From: an uncultured Staphylococcaceae bacterium
Lineage (GTDB): Bacteria > Bacillota_I > Bacilli_A > RFN20 > CAG-826
DNA length: 64,000 bases
Direction of reading: 5' to 3'
NCBI GenBank assembly: GCA_964639215.1
Contig: CAZXCV010000001.1
Coordinates: 35,168-99,167 of the forward strand
Of the stretch, positions 2,613 through 62,588 are shown in pieces. Under the pieces are notes generated by a model. That model made no database searches, had not been told where the DNA came from, and saw nothing but the letters and a program-made list of their open reading frames with translations. Every line of letters starts with the position of its first letter. Within the stretch, counting starts at the first letter, position 1. The position numbers and the translations under genes were made by a program.

Positions 2613-3403
2613 AGCTTATATTTTTTACGTTCGTCTTTAATGATTGCCTGTGTCCATTTATCAATGAGTGTCTGACTCACTAATTTTTTGTTTAACAATT
2701 CGGTGACGAGCAAATCACGATTATTGCTAAAGTACGCCGCAACGACAGGTAAGACCCGGTCAATGATACCTTCATAATCTGGGTTGGCTAAATGTCGGTC
2801 AAATAAAGCGATTTTAACATCAAGGCCGCCCTGGGCATTGATCAATAAGATATTGCGGAAATCAAGATGATAAAACGCCATCGAAGTTCGGTCACTCCCA
2901 AGTTTAATCAGCTTGGTGAAATATGAATCGAACAGCATGAAATTGTATGTTTCAAATGGATTAATCACTGATGCTGTGAAATCTTTTGTGAGCTTATCAT
3001 ACGGAAAATCAAATAGTTTGTCTGGTTCATTCGTATAAACAAAGTTCATCGCTCGATTAAAAATCGGGACATACATTTTTGTCTCATTATCGATTAAATA
3101 TGGTAAATCGAGGTGTTTGGCTAAGATGGCTTGACGAATGTCATGATGACGGATGCGCTGATGTTTAGCAAGTGAAGCCTGTCCAAGTTCCTGTAACTGC
3201 GCTTCAATCGCCAATTTATTTTGCAATGATTTAATTACGATGTTGGCTTTGATCAAAGAAAAGTCGTCTTCTAGACTATATAAGTCAAGAAAGCAGTTAT
3301 GGTCAATCAATAAATGTCGATTAGCAATGAAAAATGCATATTCGTCGCTATCGGACAATCGTTTATTTTTTTGCTCTTGTTTTAATAATTCAAATAGTCG
3401 CAT
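2609..3403 (-). CDS. hypothetical protein (about 265 aa) with no recognisable motif; ATGA stop/start overlap with mtaB
   Basis: The ORF at 2609..3421 uses a TTG in the track; the first ATG is at 3403 (MRLFELLKQEQ...). It sits where prmA lies in the Bacillus dnaJ-prmA-rsmE-mtaB cluster but has no SAM-binding GxGxG motif. Confidence 0.4.
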   Translation of the reverse strand: MRLFELLKQEQKNKRLSDSDEYAFFIANRHLLIDHNCFLDLYSLEDDFSLIKANIVIKSLQNKLAIEAQLQELGQASLAKHQRIRHHDIRQAILAKHLDLPYLIDNETKMYVPIFNRAMNFVYTNEPDKLFDFPYDKLTKDFTASVINPFETYNFMLFDSYFTKLIKLGSDRTSMAFYHLDFRNILLINAQGGLDVKIALFDRHLANPDYEGIIDRVLPVVAAYFSNNRDLLVTELLNKKLVSQTLIDKWTQAIIKDERKKYKL

Positions 3404-5734: not shown

Positions 5735-8196
<2,462 letters not shown>

Positions 8197-21550: not shown

Positions 21551-22516
21551 TTATTGTTTGAAGTTAAGGAGAAATAGCTCAAATCCAAGGAAGCGGTCAA
21601 TCAGACCGCTTTTAATTTGAAAATCAAGTTCATATAAACGATCAAGAATTATCAATAGCCGTGCGTCATTAAGTAATGATTGACTATTAATGGCTAATTT
21701 CACCCGATACTCATGAATCCCGAGTTTTTTAGCGATTTCTAGTTGGGATAGTCCTGTTTGTGTAAGATAGTAAATCTTAAGCATAAGGCGAAACTGACGC
21801 GCTAATAGTGAAATAAGCGTCACTGGCTCTTCAGCATGGATTTTTAAATCGCGATATATCGCCAGTGCTTCATCAATGCGACCTTTAGTTAAGGCATTGG
21901 CTAAAACATATGAATTTTCTTCAAGTGGGCGCGTGACTAACGTTTCCACGATGTCTTTGGTGATGTGATCGCCATATAGCATTAATTTTTGGGCTTCAGA
22001 GACGAATAATGTTGCATCATTATTCACACGACTGACAAGTTCATCAATCGCGCTACCATCAATTTTAATTTGATATTTTGCAAAATAACGTCGAACGTAT
22101 TCTGGCCATGAATTTTTATCGATATCGGTTAACTCATAAATCATCGCTTTGTCCTTGAGTATTTTGCCAATGTCACTTTTTACATTGAATGATGTTGCGT
22201 TTACGATAAAGACGAAATCTGTTGCTTCATTTGGATGTTCGAGATATTCAATTAATGCTTGGTAATTTTGATCCTTTTCAATTTTTTCCTTGCTCTTGGT
22301 TGTAGCTAAAAAATAGCAATCATCAATGACGACCATTTTTCGATCATACCCCAATGGTAATGATCGAGCATCCATCACAATGTCTTGAATCAACGTTTCT
22401 TTAGCGTTATAACGAACAAAACTAAAATCATCAACGACAGGTAGTTGCTCTTTAATTAGTTTCTGCAGTCGTGTTTTTATCATCAAGGCTTGTTTGCCAA
22501 ATAACAAATAAATCAT
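21551..22516 (-). CDS. holA: DNA polymerase III delta subunit
   Basis: 321 aa. The N-terminus (LLFGKQALMIKTRLQKLIKE) matches the YqeN/HolA family, and it sits next to comEC as in Bacillus. Confidence 0.7.
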   Translation of the reverse strand: MIYLLFGKQALMIKTRLQKLIKEQLPVVDDFSFVRYNAKETLIQDIVMDARSLPLGYDRKMVVIDDCYFLATTKSKEKIEKDQNYQALIEYLEHPNEATDFVFIVNATSFNVKSDIGKILKDKAMIYELTDIDKNSWPEYVRRYFAKYQIKIDGSAIDELVSRVNNDATLFVSEAQKLMLYGDHITKDIVETLVTRPLEENSYVLANALTKGRIDEALAIYRDLKIHAEEPVTLISLLARQFRLMLKIYYLTQTGLSQLEIAKKLGIHEYRVKLAINSQSLLNDARLLIILDRLYELDFQIKSGLIDRFLGFELFLLNFKQ

Positions 22517-22533
22517 ATTGTTATTATTTTACA

Positions 22534-24591
22534 TTAACTGAAAACTTTTCGATATGTTATTGTCCCTTCGATATCGGTACGCCGGATTGTAATTCCTTGT
22601 TCCTCAAGCCGTCTAATAATTTCAGGATGTGGATGTCCATATTGATTTTGACCAACCGATATTATCGCTTCATGTGGCTGTATATGTCTTAAAAACGAGG
22701 TCGAGGTCGAGGTTGTTGACCCATGGTGACCGACTTTAAGATAATCCGTTGGTAAAATAGGATGGTTATCAATAATTAATATTTCAACTTCGCTTGGCGC
22801 ATCACCCATTAACAGCCACTGGTAGTCCATGAATTGGAAATATAGAACGAGTGAACACATATTGGCATCAAGACATTGATTAAGGGGATTGATATTATCG
22901 AAGTGTATGCCAGCTCGAACAATCGGAAAATCGGTTGGCTCGAGAATAATTTCTGAAATTGGGAATTGTGATTGAAGAGAATTAAGCGCGCCACGATGAT
23001 CGTAGTCATCATGAGTAATAATTAATGTATCAATCTTATCGATGCCGTGTCGATGAAAAAACGGAACTAGTGAAACCGAGGCGATATCAAGATAGATTGA
23101 ACCACCAGTATCGATTAAAATTGCCGATCGCTTATTCTTGATCAAGATAGCATCTCCCTGACCAACGTTAATAAAAAATAGTGCTTGTTCATATAAATTT
23201 GATATTGGTAAGATTGAAAAAATAATCATCAGAGTCAAGCCAAAACAACCGATGTTTTTCGTTACTTTAACATGCAATTGTTTTAGAAAAAATGATAGAG
23301 AAAAAAATAGATAATAACCAAGAATAATTAGCGGTGTAAACATCGCGAAATGAAGCTGTAGCTTTACGACTTGTGAACTCGAAATAAGGAGATGGCTCAG
23401 TCGTGTCAGTGGCCGAATTATATTCACTAATGGGAGGGAATATAAGGATAGAAGACCAAGTGTTAACATCGATGAATGAACCATGACTAAAGGTCCAAGC
23501 AATAACCAGCTGATAAGATTAACTAATCCTTGGGTGTTTGCTAGAAAAGGTAGCAAAATCAATAGCGGGATATAGCGATTTTTAAGACGATTCATGATTG
23601 ACTCATGATGCTTGTTTTCCTTGACTATGTATAAGATTGAGGCGATACCAAACGACAAATAAAATCCAGGATGGTTTACTATATATCTACTAAATAACAA
23701 CATCATTATTCCTAACGACGCTTTCTTAGACCAATATGACCAATGATAGGAACCCTTGTCTTTTAAAATTAAATTAAGAATTGAACCCCCGATGATGCGC
23801 CACAAGACGACTGAAGTAATATTTAGAAAAAGCCATGGTACCAAACTTATGAACGCCAAGCGTTGTGCTTTCTTCTCACTCATAAATCTAATGAGGATTA
23901 GGTTAAGAATTTTTAGGTGACCGTGAATTAACAAGCCAGAAACACTCAGTAGATATAGGAGATTTAATGAGGCAAGATTCGAAACAATATCATGATTATA
24001 ATCACGTGTTGCAAACAAAATCGCATCAAGATATATTCGGGTGTCGCTATCAAAATTGTTCAGGAATCTGCTCTTGATATTTTGAATGCGCCACGGTAAT
24101 AAAAATACATCGGATTTATGAGTGAATATTAGTTCATGCTGAATACCTTTATTATTCAAATATTTAGCAAAATCAAATTGTCCTTCTACTCGAAAAAAAT
24201 TTATTGGTTTTACAAATCCTTCAGCCAAGATGACGTCACCAACTTGATAAGGGTGGTGTCGCATATACACATATAAACGTGTCAATTTATTTTGGACAAT
24301 CAAGTAATTTTCATGAGCGTCAATTACGAGATAAAAATGAGCTGACGCTGGTTCAAGTGAGGAAGTTAAATATCGTGAGGAGAATCCACACAAAAATGCT
24401 AAGAATAATGTCAGCATAGCGGCAGTTCCAAAACGATAATAAGTAAAAACTACAATCATAATCATGGCAATCACAACAATGATTGGAGTATCAAAGGTGG
24501 CGAGAATGCCTAAATATAACCCGATGAAACACGCAACAAAATTAAACGAGCGTAATGTAGTTTTTAATTTTTTCAAATGTCGCATTACCAA
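22534..24591 (-). CDS. comEC: DNA internalization competence protein ComEC/Rec2 (start uncertain)
   Basis: A polytopic membrane N-terminal part plus a C-terminal metallo-beta-lactamase domain (ITHDDYDHRGAL...VGHHGS). The 5' end overlaps comEA by 50 nt, so the true start is probably further downstream. Confidence 0.8.
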   Translation of the reverse strand: MVMRHLKKLKTTLRSFNFVACFIGLYLGILATFDTPIIVVIAMIMIVVFTYYRFGTAAMLTLFLAFLCGFSSRYLTSSLEPASAHFYLVIDAHENYLIVQNKLTRLYVYMRHHPYQVGDVILAEGFVKPINFFRVEGQFDFAKYLNNKGIQHELIFTHKSDVFLLPWRIQNIKSRFLNNFDSDTRIYLDAILFATRDYNHDIVSNLASLNLLYLLSVSGLLIHGHLKILNLILIRFMSEKKAQRLAFISLVPWLFLNITSVVLWRIIGGSILNLILKDKGSYHWSYWSKKASLGIMMLLFSRYIVNHPGFYLSFGIASILYIVKENKHHESIMNRLKNRYIPLLILLPFLANTQGLVNLISWLLLGPLVMVHSSMLTLGLLSLYSLPLVNIIRPLTRLSHLLISSSQVVKLQLHFAMFTPLIILGYYLFFSLSFFLKQLHVKVTKNIGCFGLTLMIIFSILPISNLYEQALFFINVGQGDAILIKNKRSAILIDTGGSIYLDIASVSLVPFFHRHGIDKIDTLIITHDDYDHRGALNSLQSQFPISEIILEPTDFPIVRAGIHFDNINPLNQCLDANMCSLVLYFQFMDYQWLLMGDAPSEVEILIIDNHPILPTDYLKVGHHGSTTSTSTSFLRHIQPHEAIISVGQNQYGHPHPEIIRRLEEQGITIRRTDIEGTITYRKVFS

Positions 24592-25069
24592 TGCCTGACA
24601 CTTGTTTTATTTGTTCGAGATACCGATATGATCCTTGCTCTTCACGATAACCAACAATCGCTGCTGAGATTGTTGGACCGATGTTACTAATCGTAAGTAG
24701 TTCTTCTTTTGTGCCAGTATTTATGCCCACCTTGACATAGGGATAATCACCGCAAATATCATCCTCAGCGAAAATTGGAGCAATGTAATAACTCATGGCA
24801 TTGATTAGTTCTACATCAATATCATAGGCAAGATCATCAGCGTTTTCAGTGACACCACCAGCTTTTTCAATCAGTTCACCGAGCGTATCTTCTTCATCCA
24901 TCACATAGGTTCCAGGCTTGATAATTTGTCCAGTGATCGACACAGTAAAATATGTGTCGCTACTTCTTGATGCTGTCAAACTATTTGCTTTAACATTCGG
25001 ATCGATGGCTAACAAGACAACTAATGTCACAATCATGAAAATTACAACGGCAATCATAATCTTATACAT
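24542..25069 (-). CDS. comEA: competence protein ComEA (membrane-anchored DNA receptor with a helix-hairpin-helix)
   Basis: 175 aa with an N-terminal TM helix, a SLBB-like middle and a C-terminal HhH (LEQIKQVSGIGNATFEKIKNYI). Confidence 0.8.
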   Translation of the reverse strand: MYKIMIAVVIFMIVTLVVLLAIDPNVKANSLTASRSSDTYFTVSITGQIIKPGTYVMDEEDTLGELIEKAGGVTENADDLAYDIDVELINAMSYYIAPIFAEDDICGDYPYVKVGINTGTKEELLTISNIGPTISAAIVGYREEQGSYRYLEQIKQVSGIGNATFEKIKNYITLV

Positions 25070-59810: not shown

Positions 59811-61091
59811 TTACTTTGCTGTTTCGTGTCGCTCAATCCGTTTCGTAATTATTTGAATCGAAAAATTGTTGATTTTATTAATCACGGTTTCGAGGTGTGT
59901 CGTTGTAATTATGTTAGTTGCTTGTAAAATCGCGTTAGCGTCACTAGCAATCTTCATCGCCTTATCCTTTATCATTTCCAGTTGCTTGGCAATGTTTTTT
60001 AACGAGTTTTCAAGTAGATTGTCTTTAAACTCCCTAAAATCATCAAGAATCATCTGCGCATCTTTAAATGAGATTTTTTCTAATTCTCGTTTGGTAACCA
60101 GTTCTGAATATTTAAGACCAATAGATTCAATAATGCCGAGTAATGTTATGAAGTAAGCCGGGCGGACAACAAGCATATTATCATAGTCAGGGACGATGAA
60201 AATCGGAGCATCAGCTTCGGTGTTATATTCCAACTCACTAATGAGAATGGCGTACTCAAGTCCCTTGCGCCGCCGATCTTCGTCGAGTTTTTTATAATGG
60301 TCTTGATTGCGTTTTTTATGCTCGGATTCGAGTGCTTCGCTTTTCATTTCGATCATCGCACTCGTCAATAATGTTTTGGGTTCCTTAATAGAATATACTT
60401 TAAAAATATAATCGCCTTTTGTACCCTTTGTTTCGCCTTGGAGACGCATCACTTCATTGTCTTTTTCAAAGGTACTTGTTTTAAAACCGAAAATACTTAC
60501 GGTTTTGAATTGTTCATAGCACCAACCTTCGAGATCTTCACCGATTTTCTTGACATTACGCATCGCCCGTTCACGTCTTAACACTTCAAGTTCAGCGACA
60601 AGATTATCCGTTTTTAGTAGTTGTTCTTTTTCTAGTTTCACCAAGTCTAGCTCATGGGTTTTAACATGATATTCGAGTTGGAGGCGATGTTCGCCTTCAT
60701 TCTGATCAAGCTGATGTTTGAGCTCAGCTATCTGATGTTCTTTAACATCAATTTCATGGCGCATCGCTAATTCCGCCTCTTGCTTAGCAATGGTGATCGC
60801 TGCTTCTTTATTCGCTTGTAGTGCTGCTAACTGCTCTTTAAGTGTTTGGGTTTCTAGTGTTAACGCATTCTTCACCCGAGTTATTTCGAGTTCATGTTCC
60901 ATTTCGAGATGTTTCGCTTGCATCTCAAAATATGTAGTATAAGCGGTATCAGTCCCACGCTTAATCGCCTCGAGAATCGGGTTTTGATCGATTGTCATCA
61001 GGTTTGTTAAATCGATGATATCCCCTATTTGGCCAGATTCTTCAAGCATTAATGTGGTTTTGTCTTTGACGATGACTTTGAGTTTTTTCAT
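59811..61091 (-). CDS. DUF2130-like coiled-coil protein with a possible C-terminal PD-(D/E)xK nuclease motif (RmuC-like architecture)
   Basis: 426 aa with a long heptad-like central region (KEQLAALQANKEAAITIAKQEAELAMRHEIDVKEHQIAELKHQL...). Near the C-terminus, GDYIFKV...AMIEMKSE gives a D...E.K pattern. Confidence 0.45.
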   Translation of the reverse strand: MKKLKVIVKDKTTLMLEESGQIGDIIDLTNLMTIDQNPILEAIKRGTDTAYTTYFEMQAKHLEMEHELEITRVKNALTLETQTLKEQLAALQANKEAAITIAKQEAELAMRHEIDVKEHQIAELKHQLDQNEGEHRLQLEYHVKTHELDLVKLEKEQLLKTDNLVAELEVLRRERAMRNVKKIGEDLEGWCYEQFKTVSIFGFKTSTFEKDNEVMRLQGETKGTKGDYIFKVYSIKEPKTLLTSAMIEMKSEALESEHKKRNQDHYKKLDEDRRRKGLEYAILISELEYNTEADAPIFIVPDYDNMLVVRPAYFITLLGIIESIGLKYSELVTKRELEKISFKDAQMILDDFREFKDNLLENSLKNIAKQLEMIKDKAMKIASDANAILQATNIITTTHLETVINKINNFSIQIITKRIERHETAK

Positions 61092-61212
61092 ATTATGACC
61101 ACTACCTTACTGCTTAAGTTTATCATCCTTAACGTTTCATTGATGAATCAAATCATGTTTGTGGCTATAAAAACAAAATAACACCGTTAGAGGCGCTGTT
61201 CAATATAGCTTG

Positions 61213-61223
61213 GTGCCTCCTTA
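61213..61223 (-). repeat. 11-bp direct repeat of the tRNA-Thr 3' end (att-like)
   Basis: TGGTGCCTCCT at 61213-61223 is identical to 62473-62483. The second copy is the CCA, discriminator and 3' acceptor strand of the tRNA, and both are in the same orientation. Confidence 0.45.
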
Positions 61224-61373
61224 TGGAATTATCTGTAGTAATGATAGAAAGTGGTAGAAAATATTAAATGCTGATAAAAACAGATAAATAAAGAAGTCAA
61301 AAACATTTGAGAAATATATTCTGATATATGGTGTTTAATACCATTGAAACTTATTAAATTTAATCGACCAATT

Positions 61374-61706
61374 TTAAACACCTAATAAAACTTTAATCTC
61401 AAATCCCACCACTCCATATTTGATAATATCTTCTTTGCTATAGTAGACAAGCATATCATCTGGATTAGCTTCTTCGTTTTCTAAATAGCCGATAGACATC
61501 TTGTTGTGATGTTGATAAAGTCCTTCAAAATCTTGATATTCATATTTTGCCAAAACGGAACAAGCAATCTTTTCGCCTGTTTTGTTGTTGGTAAATTCAA
61601 TAGTGTCACCAATTTTTATGAGCTTTTTGCTTTCTTTGTTAAGTCTCATCTCAATTGTTTTTGATCCACTTACAATCATAGCGAATGGTTCAGGGCACAA
61701 ATTCAT
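61374..61706 (-). CDS. ASCH-domain (PUA-like) protein
   Basis: ATG 61706. MNLCPEPFAMIVSGSKTIEMRL matches the ASCH GxKxxExR signature, and the size (about 111 aa) matches the YqfB-like class. Confidence 0.65.
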   Translation of the reverse strand: MNLCPEPFAMIVSGSKTIEMRLNKESKKLIKIGDTIEFTNNKTGEKIACSVLAKYEYQDFEGLYQHHNKMSIGYLENEEANPDDMLVYYSKEDIIKYGVVGFEIKVLLGV

Positions 61707-61719
61707 TTGATGTTTCAAA

Positions 61720-62409
61720 CTATTCCTCTTCTTCGTAATAATAAGAATAGTCAATTCCTTTTAGGAATAATTCCCTATTATCAATCTCATCAGTTAGTGC
61801 GAATTTTAATAAATCATGAATTTTTAAGGAACTAACAGGACTTTCTCTCATCGCGTTTAAATAATCGTTTTTATCAATATTTGACCAATCAACGCATTTG
61901 CCTATCCTATTAATGAATAATAAATCTAACCATATTCTAGTTGCTCTGCCACTCCCTTCCATAAAAGGATGCGAAATATTCATTTCGACATATTTATTCA
62001 CTATTTTGTCAAATGTTGAATCAGGCATCTTATCTATATCTTTCAAAATTTGTGGTAGGAAATCACCATTAGCAAAAACGACTCCGCCTTTTGAAATAGT
62101 TTTGGTGCGGATTCTCCCCGCGAAAGGGTATAAACCTTCAAATAGATAACCATGAATTTTTAGCAAAGCAATTGTTTTACTAATTTCATTATTTTCAATC
62201 AAAGAAGTTTGATAAAAATCATAAGCTTTCTTTTTGCTTTGTTCATCAATAGAATCAAGCATTCCTTGAATCCAATATCGAATTTGCTTTTTATACTTTG
62301 AAGGAATAATCGTTAATAGTAATCTGACACCATTCTCATTAATAACATCTGAAAGATATTTTTTTCCATCATTGGAATATAGTTTCTGTTGTCCACAAAA
62401 TTGGGACAA
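61720..62409 (-). CDS. fic: Fic-family protein (Fido, COG2184-like); intact active-site motif
   Basis: ISHPFMEGSGRATRIWLDLLF matches HPFx(D/E)GNGRxxR, and the core aligns with E. coli Fic (HPFRVGSGLAQRIFFEQL). The N-terminal TSLIEN resembles the class-II inhibitory helix motif (S/T)xxxE(G/N). The gene is AT-rich. Confidence 0.8.
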   Translation of the reverse strand: MSQFCGQQKLYSNDGKKYLSDVINENGVRLLLTIIPSKYKKQIRYWIQGMLDSIDEQSKKKAYDFYQTSLIENNEISKTIALLKIHGYLFEGLYPFAGRIRTKTISKGGVVFANGDFLPQILKDIDKMPDSTFDKIVNKYVEMNISHPFMEGSGRATRIWLDLLFINRIGKCVDWSNIDKNDYLNAMRESPVSSLKIHDLLKFALTDEIDNRELFLKGIDYSYYYEEEE

Positions 62410-62472
62410 CTAAAAAACCCCTTTAATTGTAACCACTATTTGGTCCAATATTTGGGGGTAACTTCAAAGAGC

Positions 62473-62546
62473 TGGTGCCTCCTGCCAGAATCGAACTAGC
62501 AACTAATCCTTACCATGGATTTGTTATACCACTTAACTAAGGAGGC
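62473..62546 (-). tRNA. tRNA-Thr (anticodon GGU), CCA encoded
   Basis: A manual cloverleaf fold works. The acceptor stem is GCCTCCT/AGGAGGC, the D arm GTTA-AGTGGTA-TAAC, and the anticodon arm AATCC-AT GGT AA-GGATT. The T arm is GCTAG-TTCGATT-CTGGC, with an A discriminator and CCA. Confidence 0.85.
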
Positions 62547-62558
62547 TGACGCTTATAA

Positions 62559-62588
62559 ATATTATTATATGGTCACGTTCTTTGTCAA
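62559..62588 (-). promoter_or_regulatory. candidate sigma-A promoter of tRNA-Thr
   Basis: Minus strand: TTGACA at 62583-62588, an 18 nt spacer, then TAATAT, with the predicted start a few nt upstream of the tRNA 5' end. Confidence 0.4.

Follow-up and report, generated by a model that had tools for sequence, protein, structure and literature searches.

A probable decayed integrative cassette at a tRNA-Thr gene carries a truncated Fic gene and an ASCH gene

Introduction

What is the short AT-rich islet that lies behind a tRNA-Thr gene in the 64,000-nt stretch of bacterial DNA analyzed here (the window), how did it arrive, and do its two genes, for a Fic-domain and an ASCH-domain protein, make up a working toxin system? 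An earlier reading of the DNA (the original prediction) had noted a direct repeat of the tRNA 3' end on the far side of the two genes, and had proposed a foreign, decayed or minimal islet with an intact Fic toxin and an ASCH partner. Comparison with related contigs led us to conclude that positions 61211-62472 are very probably a decayed copy of a small, horizontally acquired integrative cassette that has no integrase gene and resembles the cis-mobilizable elements (CIMEs). The ClpB and tRNA-Thr genes lie on one side of the islet, and those for DUF2130, RimP and NusA on the other.

Conservation of the islet in diverged hosts

Fic loci on related contigs (denoted by L and a number) were compared, 95 loci in all (L001-L101). 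The islet was found after tRNA-Thr in at least three diverged hosts. The closest homologue of the window Fic protein (92% identical) was encoded on L001, in the order ClpB, endonuclease, tRNA-Thr(GGT), Bro-N-Fic, ASCH, a 20-nt repeat of the tRNA end and uracil permease. The ASCH proteins of the window and L001 were also 92% identical, and the ClpB proteins 84%. A third host, represented by L099 and L007, carried the core (see below), the left end, Fic, ASCH and the permease; RimP-NusA-IF2 came at some distance after them, in agreement with the window. The Fic-ASCH pair recurred in L001, L007, L099, L100 and L101. The islet is 1.26 kb long in the window and 1.63 kb in L001.

The islet DNA was 92-94% identical between hosts, whereas the flanking ClpB, NusA and IF2 genes were 70-74% identical, with saturated third positions. 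Between the window and L001, Fic and ASCH showed 94% DNA identity, 90-92% identity at third positions and a synonymous divergence (dS) of 0.16. The ClpB genes of the same two contigs showed 73% and 45%, respectively, with a proportion of synonymous differences (pS) of 0.83 (saturated). Against L099, third-position identity was 0.85-0.89 for Fic and ASCH, versus 0.40-0.44 for NusA, RimP and IF2. Because Fic and ASCH are far more alike between the hosts than the flanking genes are, the islet appears to be much younger in these genomes than the split of the hosts.

Along the alignment of the window with L001, identity was 88-98% over both genes and about 82% over the non-coding right part, and it dropped from about 0.8 to about 0.4 immediately past the distal repeat. 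The proposal of a foreign, decayed minimal islet was borne out by the contrast in identity between islet and flanks, by the end of homology at the distal repeat, and by the break at the core in tandem copies described below.

The base composition also set the islet apart. Its GC content (61222-62472) was 30.4%, against a window mean of 41%, and the 1-kb bin 61001-62000 was the lowest in GC of all 64 bins (z = -4.8). GC at third codon positions was 0.239 in the Fic open reading frame (ORF; z = -4.65) and 0.306 in the ASCH gene (z = -2.3), against 0.373 +/- 0.029 in 41 other ORFs. Windowed GC and codon composition thus agreed with the earlier remark that both genes are more AT-rich than their surroundings. 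The second-lowest GC stretch of the window, 22001-25000 (0.35-0.37), contained a ComEC-like ORF (DUF4131 plus Lactamase_B, 22534-24591) next to holA; its composition is probably that of a membrane protein rather than of foreign DNA.

The host itself appeared to be an uncultured, Acholeplasma-like member of the Bacilli, without a close sequenced relative in the collections. A search with the window DUF2130 protein returned the protein itself (100%), then a 61%-identical one on L091; farther ones came from Acholeplasma sp. or from metagenome-assembled genomes labeled Bacilli bacterium. On L091, a tRNA-Leu gene and an IS3-family insertion sequence (IS) element are found instead of the Fic islet.

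Target tRNA and direct repeats

The tRNA-Thr(GGT) gene was the sole tRNA gene in the window by both ARAGORN and Rfam. The sequence TGGTGCCTCCT, which is the complement of its acceptor 3' strand, discriminator and CCA, had exactly two exact copies in the window, at 62473-62483 and at 61211-61221 of the plus strand. The 11-bp repeat that had been proposed is therefore real, and only the position of its left copy, previously given as 61213-61223, had to be shifted by 2 nt. The distal copy lies on the downstream side of the tRNA 3' end and in the same orientation, as had been stated, so that the geometry of attL and attR attachment (att) sites holds. The first base of the islet is the base right after the CCA of the tRNA.

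A chance recurrence had been called unlikely, and the exact 11-mer is indeed expected only 1.8e-4 times per 1.3 kb; the statement did not carry over to a broader null model, under which the score of the window repeat fell within the range of chance (see below). By itself, the 11-mer is weak evidence, and it becomes convincing only with comparative data. The orthologous repeat in L001, ATTCTGGCAGGNGGCACCAT, is 20 nt long with one mismatch, and scored 35 against a null maximum of 21. L100 and L101 also carry a 20-nt repeat with one mismatch.

Past the distal core of the window, a hairpin (fold -14.4 kcal/mol, z -2.7) precedes a T-run. In L001 a hairpin-like sequence and a T-run were seen by eye at the same place, with a fold not better than shuffled sequence (z -1.1). 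We read this hairpin and T-run as the original terminator of the tRNA, displaced by the insertion.

Arm, core and tandem cassettes

From the first core base onward, as far as the contig end, L100 and L101 shared 99.4% identity with L001. To the left of the core they had no tRNA gene; another cassette, with an IS30-like gene and a DUF3800 gene, stood there instead. This second cassette ended in a 169-bp arm, 88.8% identical to the right arm of the Fic islet, and in the core. An example of arm plus core is GGGTATGAAAATACACCACCAATACACC...GAATTCTGGCAGGRGGCACCA. The polymorphism between L001 and L100 broke exactly at the core. The 20-nt extent of the core was set by this breakpoint together with the L001 repeat. 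The first 30 nt of L007 were likewise arm, core and left end.

Arm and core are therefore common to two unrelated cassettes that stand in tandem, and the core is the exact point at which otherwise nearly identical genomes diverge. This pattern is that of accretion at an att site. Tandem accretion of CIMEs, integrative and mobilizable elements (IMEs) and integrative and conjugative elements (ICEs) at att sites has been described in streptococci (PMC5704250). It was seen here in L100, L101 and at the 5' end of L007, and not in the window.

These features suggest how the islet arrived. The cassette would have entered by site-specific recombination within the core ATTCTGGCAGGRGGCACCA. Entry would have rebuilt the tRNA and pushed its original 3' end and terminator to the distal side. 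The conserved arm, about 170 bp long and adjacent to the distal core, may be recognized by an integrase acting in trans. The reconstructed empty site is the tRNA-Thr 3' end followed directly by AGCTATATTGAACAGCGCCTCTAACGGTGTTATTTTG. The features of the window copy are collected in Table 1.

Table 1. Features of the islet and of its tRNA target in the window
Feature	Position	Strand	Evidence and remarks
tRNA-Thr promoter-like site, TTGACA-16-AATAAT	62561-62588	-	Consensus scan, 11/12 matches; homologous L001 stretch conserved
tRNA-Thr(GGT)	62473-62546	-	ARAGORN; Rfam RF00005, 63.2 bits; 3' end is the putative integration target
Proximal core (attL-type), ATTCTGGCAGGAGGCACCAG	62472-62491	-	Only 62473-62483 exactly repeated in the window
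Islet left end	62410-62472	-	24-mer TGAAGTTACCCCCAAATATTGGAC (62443-62466), then hairpin, then AAAGGGGTTTTTT (Shine-Dalgarno (SD)-like or terminator-like)
Hybrid operator-like palindrome, TTGTCCCAATTTTGTGGACAA	62389-62409	-	Junction of the 214-bp deletion; alignment to L001
5'-truncated Bro-N/NmFic-type Fic ORF	61720-62409	-	229 codons from TTG; internal ATG at 62262; Pfam Fic E 8.5e-10
Fic motif, HPFMEGSGRATR	61936-61971	-	Inside the Fic ORF
C-terminal inhibitory motif, SYYYEE	61729-61746	-	Inside the Fic ORF
ASCH-domain gene, 110 aa, motif GSKTIEMR	61374-61706	-	Pfam ASCH E 1.1e-7; open, apparently intact
Right-arm remnant beside distal core	61222-61334	-	About 113 bp, TATCA-type repeats; aligned with both L100 arms; single copy in the window
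Distal core (attR-type), ATTCCATAAGGAGGCACCAA	61210-61229	-	Exact 11-mer at 61211-61221; 15/19 positions match the tRNA end
Displaced native tRNA-Thr terminator (our reading)	61168-61210	-	Hairpin 61180-61197, then ATTTTGTTTT; terminator scan

The left end of the islet was kept in L001, L007, L099 and L100, and its hairpin folded with -17.8 kcal/mol (z -1.9). It was considered as a dispersed repeat and rejected as such, being single-copy in the window. The stretch from TGAAGTTACCCCCAAATATTGGAC to AAAGGGGTTTTTT is similar to the end of an IS3-family element, namely its terminal inverted repeat and the leader of its orfA. On L091, an intact IS3-family element (1290-2800) lies between tRNA-Leu and DUF2130, and a solo copy much like the window left end is right beside it. 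A second, partial left-end copy is present in L001 at about 3199-3217.

Searches of viral contigs with the arm-plus-core pattern and with one arm pattern gave no match. A second arm pattern matched L102, which was rejected as a parent element, the match being a chance one in an AT-rich ORF. A pattern of the tRNA 3' half matched L092, which proved to carry another kind of island at tRNA-Thr, with methyltransferase and helicase genes and no distal repeat within 12.5 kb. On this IMG/VR contig (L092:1-12594), the tRNA-Thr(GGT) gene, identical in its 3' half, has behind it a helix-turn-helix (HTH)-adenine methyltransferase gene (by translation), an ORF of 1059 aa and a large one that is helicase-like. 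The same tRNA-Thr would accordingly seem to be an insertion hotspot for other islands. A phage origin was also sought with the Fic protein, and no match in the viral contigs was confirmed.

Identity of the Fic gene

The best 120 homologues of the window Fic ORF were all about 284 aa long, many with Pfam Bro-N and Fic domains, and the window ORF aligned to their residues 56-284. The NmFic equivalog model of NCBIfam (NF046029) scored the window ORF at 241.9 bits and a full-length homologue, P0001, at 253.4 bits (cutoff 230). P0001 aligned end to end with the NmFic structures of the PDB (E about 1e-58).

NmFic is the prototype of the class III Fic proteins, in which the inhibitory helix is C-terminal; proteins of this class are self-inhibited and need no antitoxin (PMC3667792). 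The original prediction had taken TSLIEN, near the N-terminus, for an inhibitory helix, which would indicate class II. Of 206 homologues, no more than 11 fitted the motif [ST]xxxE[GN] at this position, where 73 variants occurred, and in NmFic the position aligned with ESGDIDR, in a non-inhibitory part. SYYYE, at the other end, was present in all 180 homologues that reach the C-terminus. The SYYYEE of the window aligned with SYYYEG of NmFic, with the Ser and the inhibitory Glu kept and E as the last residue rather than the G/N of (S/T)xxxE(G/N). The class II assignment was accordingly given up. Judging from these alignments, the family consists of Bro-N fused to a class III Fic AMP-transferase of the NmFic type, probably self-inhibited by the SYYYEE helix.

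The family resembles NmFic (PDB 2g03, 3s6a, 5ckl; PMC3667792) in the HPFxEGNGRxxR motif, the C-terminal S-Y-Y-Y-E and the end-to-end alignment of the Fic domain. Unlike NmFic, it has an extra N-terminal Bro-N, and E rather than G or N as last residue of the inhibitory motif. The window copy differs further in having lost most of Bro-N and in having GSG in place of GNG.

A role in defence had also been raised for the cassette. P0001 matched the PADLOC model PDLC04841 (PDC-S04) over residues 2-284 (E 4e-118), of which the window ORF lacks the first 55 residues. PDC-S04 is an unverified candidate single-gene defence system, and one functional test found no defence (bioRxiv 10.1101/2024.12.20.629700). 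The idea of a defence-type cassette thus stands as an annotation, through the family match; as a function it is that of an unverified candidate, for which the one test we found was negative.

Probable decay of the window Fic copy

Alignment of the window with L001 revealed two deletions, of 214 bp and about 150 bp. The first runs between two direct copies of TTGTC-N11-GACAA-type palindromes, found in L001 at 1870-1897 and 2084-2111, i.e. at -49 (promoter region) and at +165 (codons 56-62) of the Fic gene. It took the promoter, the start codon and 55 Bro-N codons. Recombination between the -49 and +165 palindromes would account for this loss. The second deletion removed about 150 bp of the right part, upstream of the right-arm remnant.

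The remaining Fic sequence was also altered. Four substitutions (G77S, F110V, A146S and N153S, numbered on the 229-aa product in the case of N153S) fell at columns that were at least 98% invariant across 206 homologues. The number of departures from such columns in 120 close homologues was zero for 99, one for 20 and two for a single homologue. N153S turns GNG into GSG. GNG was found in all 206 homologues, and the family conforms to the signature HxFx(D/E)GNGRxxR, which the window copy, with HPFMEGSGRATR, does not. The Asn of the Fic motif contacts the alpha-phosphate of ATP (PMC3667792).

Because the promoter and 55 codons have been lost, and because of the four substitutions including N153S, the window Fic gene is most likely inactive or decaying. 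The gene had been described as intact; compared with its 284-aa homologues it is short of the promoter and of codons 1-55, and it has Ser for the invariant Asn of the motif.

Two other short Fic products were considered and set aside. P0176 (180 aa, same 90% cluster) had looked like a truncated Fic and proved to be an intact gene of 284 codons that had been called too short. P0019 (229 aa; L008:1-330) had looked like the same deletion and proved to be a frameshift in an otherwise full-length gene. The Fic gene on L008 lies directly after the 3' end of an apparent tRNA-Glu gene.

The palindromes are a feature of the Bro-N-Fic genes at large. The operator-like site TTGTCNNNNNWTTGTNGACAA, composed of two 10-bp half-palindromes, occurs at -49 and again within the gene at +165. 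A scan of 81 Fic loci over 981 nt each, with up to two mismatches allowed, found 20 sites upstream and 23 internal ones, with both at 16 loci and only two sites elsewhere. The +165 palindrome was retained even where the encoded amino acids differ. The Fic gene may be autoregulated through the palindromes at -49 and +165.

The ASCH gene

The ASCH product scored 32.9 bits with Pfam ASCH (PF04266; gathering cutoff 21.2), and its GSKTIEMR fits GxKxxExR. It matched PHROG 19935, 'RNA-binding protein' (E 6e-17), and weakly the PDB entries for PH0355 and PF0455 of Pyrococcus. The protein collection held 273 homologues, and the public record annotates the same 110-aa product. In length (about 110 aa), in its GxKxxExR-type motif and in the PHROG RNA-binding family match it resembles the small ASCH/PUA-like proteins (PF04266; PH0355, PF0455); it differs from them in having no NCBIfam or PADLOC match.

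Among the 95 Fic loci, an ASCH gene followed Fic only in copies of this one islet. No neighbor of Fic was conserved across the loci, and clusters of neighbors were shared only by replicate contigs of the same locus. Because the pairing is confined to this islet, we treat ASCH as passenger cargo and not as a conserved partner of Fic.

Alternative explanations

Several observations weigh against a decayed integrative cassette. No integrase ORF lies between the repeats, as had been stated from the start, nor was one found in the islet copies or related cassettes examined, and tblastn of the whole window with three approximate recombinase queries found none. No empty site was found: a genome contig scan based on DUF2130 gave only 45%-identical, non-syntenic relatives (Acholeplasma laidlawii 45%), because the host appears to have no close sequenced relative. 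Neither the right arm nor the distal core is present in L007 and L099; the Fic-ASCH module can sit without an attR. The likeness of the left end TGAAGTTACCCCCAAATATTGGAC to an IS3-family terminal inverted repeat (compare the element on L091) may point to transposition in part of the history of the islet. When any sub-segment of the last 45 nt of the tRNA plus 10 nt of flank was allowed to match anywhere in 9 kb downstream, the score of 22 of the window repeat was unexceptional (median 19, maximum 27).

As to the decay of Fic, the ORF is open, has an SD-like AAAGGGG 8 nt before the TTG, and covers the whole NmFic-like domain. The ratio of non-synonymous to synonymous rates (dN/dS) on the window branch (about 10 non-synonymous and 10 synonymous changes) was not clearly above that of L001, in a test with too few substitutions to decide whether the gene is a pseudogene and less informative than that of the invariant columns.

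The open ORF raises the alternative that the truncation was adaptive. Loss of Bro-N would have made a stand-alone NmFic-like enzyme, of 229 aa from TTG or of 180 aa from the ATG at 62262, expressed by read-through from the tRNA-Thr promoter with the IS-derived AAAGGGG as ribosome-binding site. The remaining ORF matched positions 3-177 of the 177 of the NmFic profile, above the curated cutoff; MLDSIDEQS, within the ORF, aligns with the beginning of NmFic; the 229-aa protein is in the public record; and the branch dN/dS was not clearly elevated. The four substitutions at invariant positions are unique to the window copy, and one of them replaces the motif Asn, which binds the alpha-phosphate. 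The native promoter is deleted, and a hairpin followed by a U-run stands between the tRNA and the ORF. We consider adaptive truncation unlikely.

The missing integrase would also be explained if the module had spread by natural transformation and homologous recombination, with the tRNA-end repeats as relics of one ancient event. The ComEC-like ORF indicates competence machinery in the host of the window, and L099 has TfoX; the copies on L007 and L099 without distal core are in line with such a route as well. Flanks of 70-74% identity with saturated synonymous sites, on the other hand, are poor substrates for homologous recombination, and high identity begins and ends at the core. Two unrelated cassettes with the same 169-bp arm and core in tandem are also not expected. 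Spread by transformation is thus improbable.

The original prediction suggested that the two genes could work as a pair, with an intact Fic toxin, of class II if TSLIEN is its inhibitory helix, and ASCH as immunity or partner protein. The two ORFs are adjacent on the same strand, 13 nt apart, the pair recurs on the five contigs named above, and TSLIEN literally fits (S/T)xxxE(G/N). This Fic lacks 55 codons and its promoter, its domain is of the self-inhibited class III type with a C-terminal helix, and the TSLIEN position rarely fits the motif among the homologues (11/206). The restriction of the pair to copies of this islet among the 95 loci, the lack of any conserved neighbor and the lack of a PADLOC match for ASCH also speak against a toxin-immunity pair. 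We regard it as very improbable, and abandoned it.

Finally, a chance 11-mer between two vertically inherited AT-rich resident genes, as the unexceptional score under the broad null and the occurrence of at least two matches with up to one mismatch in 4 of 100 shuffles might suggest, is refuted by the comparative data to the point that we give it hardly any credence, since the orthologous repeat is 20 nt in L001 and L100, the islet is 92-94% identical against 70-74% for the flanking genes, homology stops at the repeat, and the islet is a GC outlier (z = -4.8).

Comparison with known systems

In classical tRNA-integrated islands and prophages, tyrosine integrases target the segment from the T-loop to the CCA. 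The decayed cassette proposed here is like them in its core, which begins on the 3' side of the T-arm and ends with the CCA, in the repeat on the 3' side, in its foreign composition and in the displaced terminator. It is unlike them in that no integrase gene stands beside either att site in the islet copies examined.

With the CIMEs of the streptococcal ICE/IME systems (PMC5704250) the islet shares attL/attR-type repeats of the target 3' end, the lack of integration and transfer genes, and the tandem arrangement with another element at the same att site (L100/L101). It differs in its very small size (1.26 kb, or 1.63 kb in L001), its IS3-like left end and its Acholeplasma-like Bacilli hosts. 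No ICE, IME or integrase with the core of the islet was retrieved.

More speculatively, the tRNA-Thr(GGT) locus could be a cassette-capture site, where a remote recombinase stacks unrelated integrase-less mini-cassettes of 1-3 kb that have a common arm of about 170 bp and a 20-bp core, in the manner of an integron and enriched in Fic-type or defence-candidate cargo. We put this forward tentatively, as a rather unlikely extension.

As for PDC-S04, the likeness lies in the full-length match of P0001 and in one homologue (L098) near genes for a MazG-like protein, an SLFN-type helicase and Cas9. PDC-S04 itself is a prediction only, and the window copy is truncated.

Other Fic loci near tRNA genes

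Bro-N-Fic homologues were often located just downstream of a tRNA gene on the same strand (Thr, Glu, Ser, Met, Arg, Leu or Lys). A tRNA gene lay within about 650 nt at at least 11 of the 95 Fic loci. Among the tRNA-adjacent homologues, tRNA-end repeats were significant only for L001, L009/L010 and L034, and were absent at L011, L030, L033, L047, L051, L093 and L098.

L009/L010 carry a 7-kb island, with a 25-nt repeat (four mismatches) of the tRNA-Thr end 7 kb away. In L034, 54 nt of the 3' portion of tRNA-Arg(CCT) recur as a partial copy (83% identical) 1.6 kb downstream (485-538 and 2128-2181). The repeat brackets a Fic homologue with no integrase, and its differences in the T-stem are compensatory. 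L034 is a second integrase-less Fic mini-islet.

In L049, a perfect 62-nt direct repeat (5926-5987 and 6904-6965) surrounds a Bro-N-Fic homologue downstream of tRNA-Lys, and two degenerate copies of the tRNA-Lys 3' end occur (5858-5875, 7066-7083). The arrangement suggests a further small Fic cassette, one that targets another tRNA.

On L098 (10001-20852), the Fic homologue stands beside the MazG-like, SLFN-type helicase and Cas9 genes together with Cas1 and Cas2, downstream of tRNA-Asn and tRNA-Glu, a context that resembles a defence island. On L014, a tRNA-Thr-type core without a tRNA (CTGGCAGGGGGCACCA, 388-403) is followed by a terminator-like hairpin, then by a different Fic-domain gene (512-1483; HVFEEGNTR, with an HTH-like C-terminal region by eye) and by a Bro-N-Fic gene.

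Implications

The annotation of the locus is corrected by these results. The 229-aa 'Fic' protein is what is left of a Bro-N/class III Fic after truncation of the 5' end of its gene, and is probably inactive; the ASCH protein is a passenger, not an immunity partner. What stands here is an ordinary genomic islet in decay and not a functioning toxin system, and current understanding is not overturned.

The dual palindromes around the Bro-N segment of PDC-S04-type Fic genes may be an autoregulatory operator, and would at the same time be a built-in deletion hotspot.

At the level of sequence, the locus shows cleanly how a cassette that lacks an integrase has moved, at a single tRNA gene, between diverged hosts within an Acholeplasma-like lineage of which few members have been sampled. 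The conserved arm-plus-core recombination site, with no integrase in sight, is a lead worth following.

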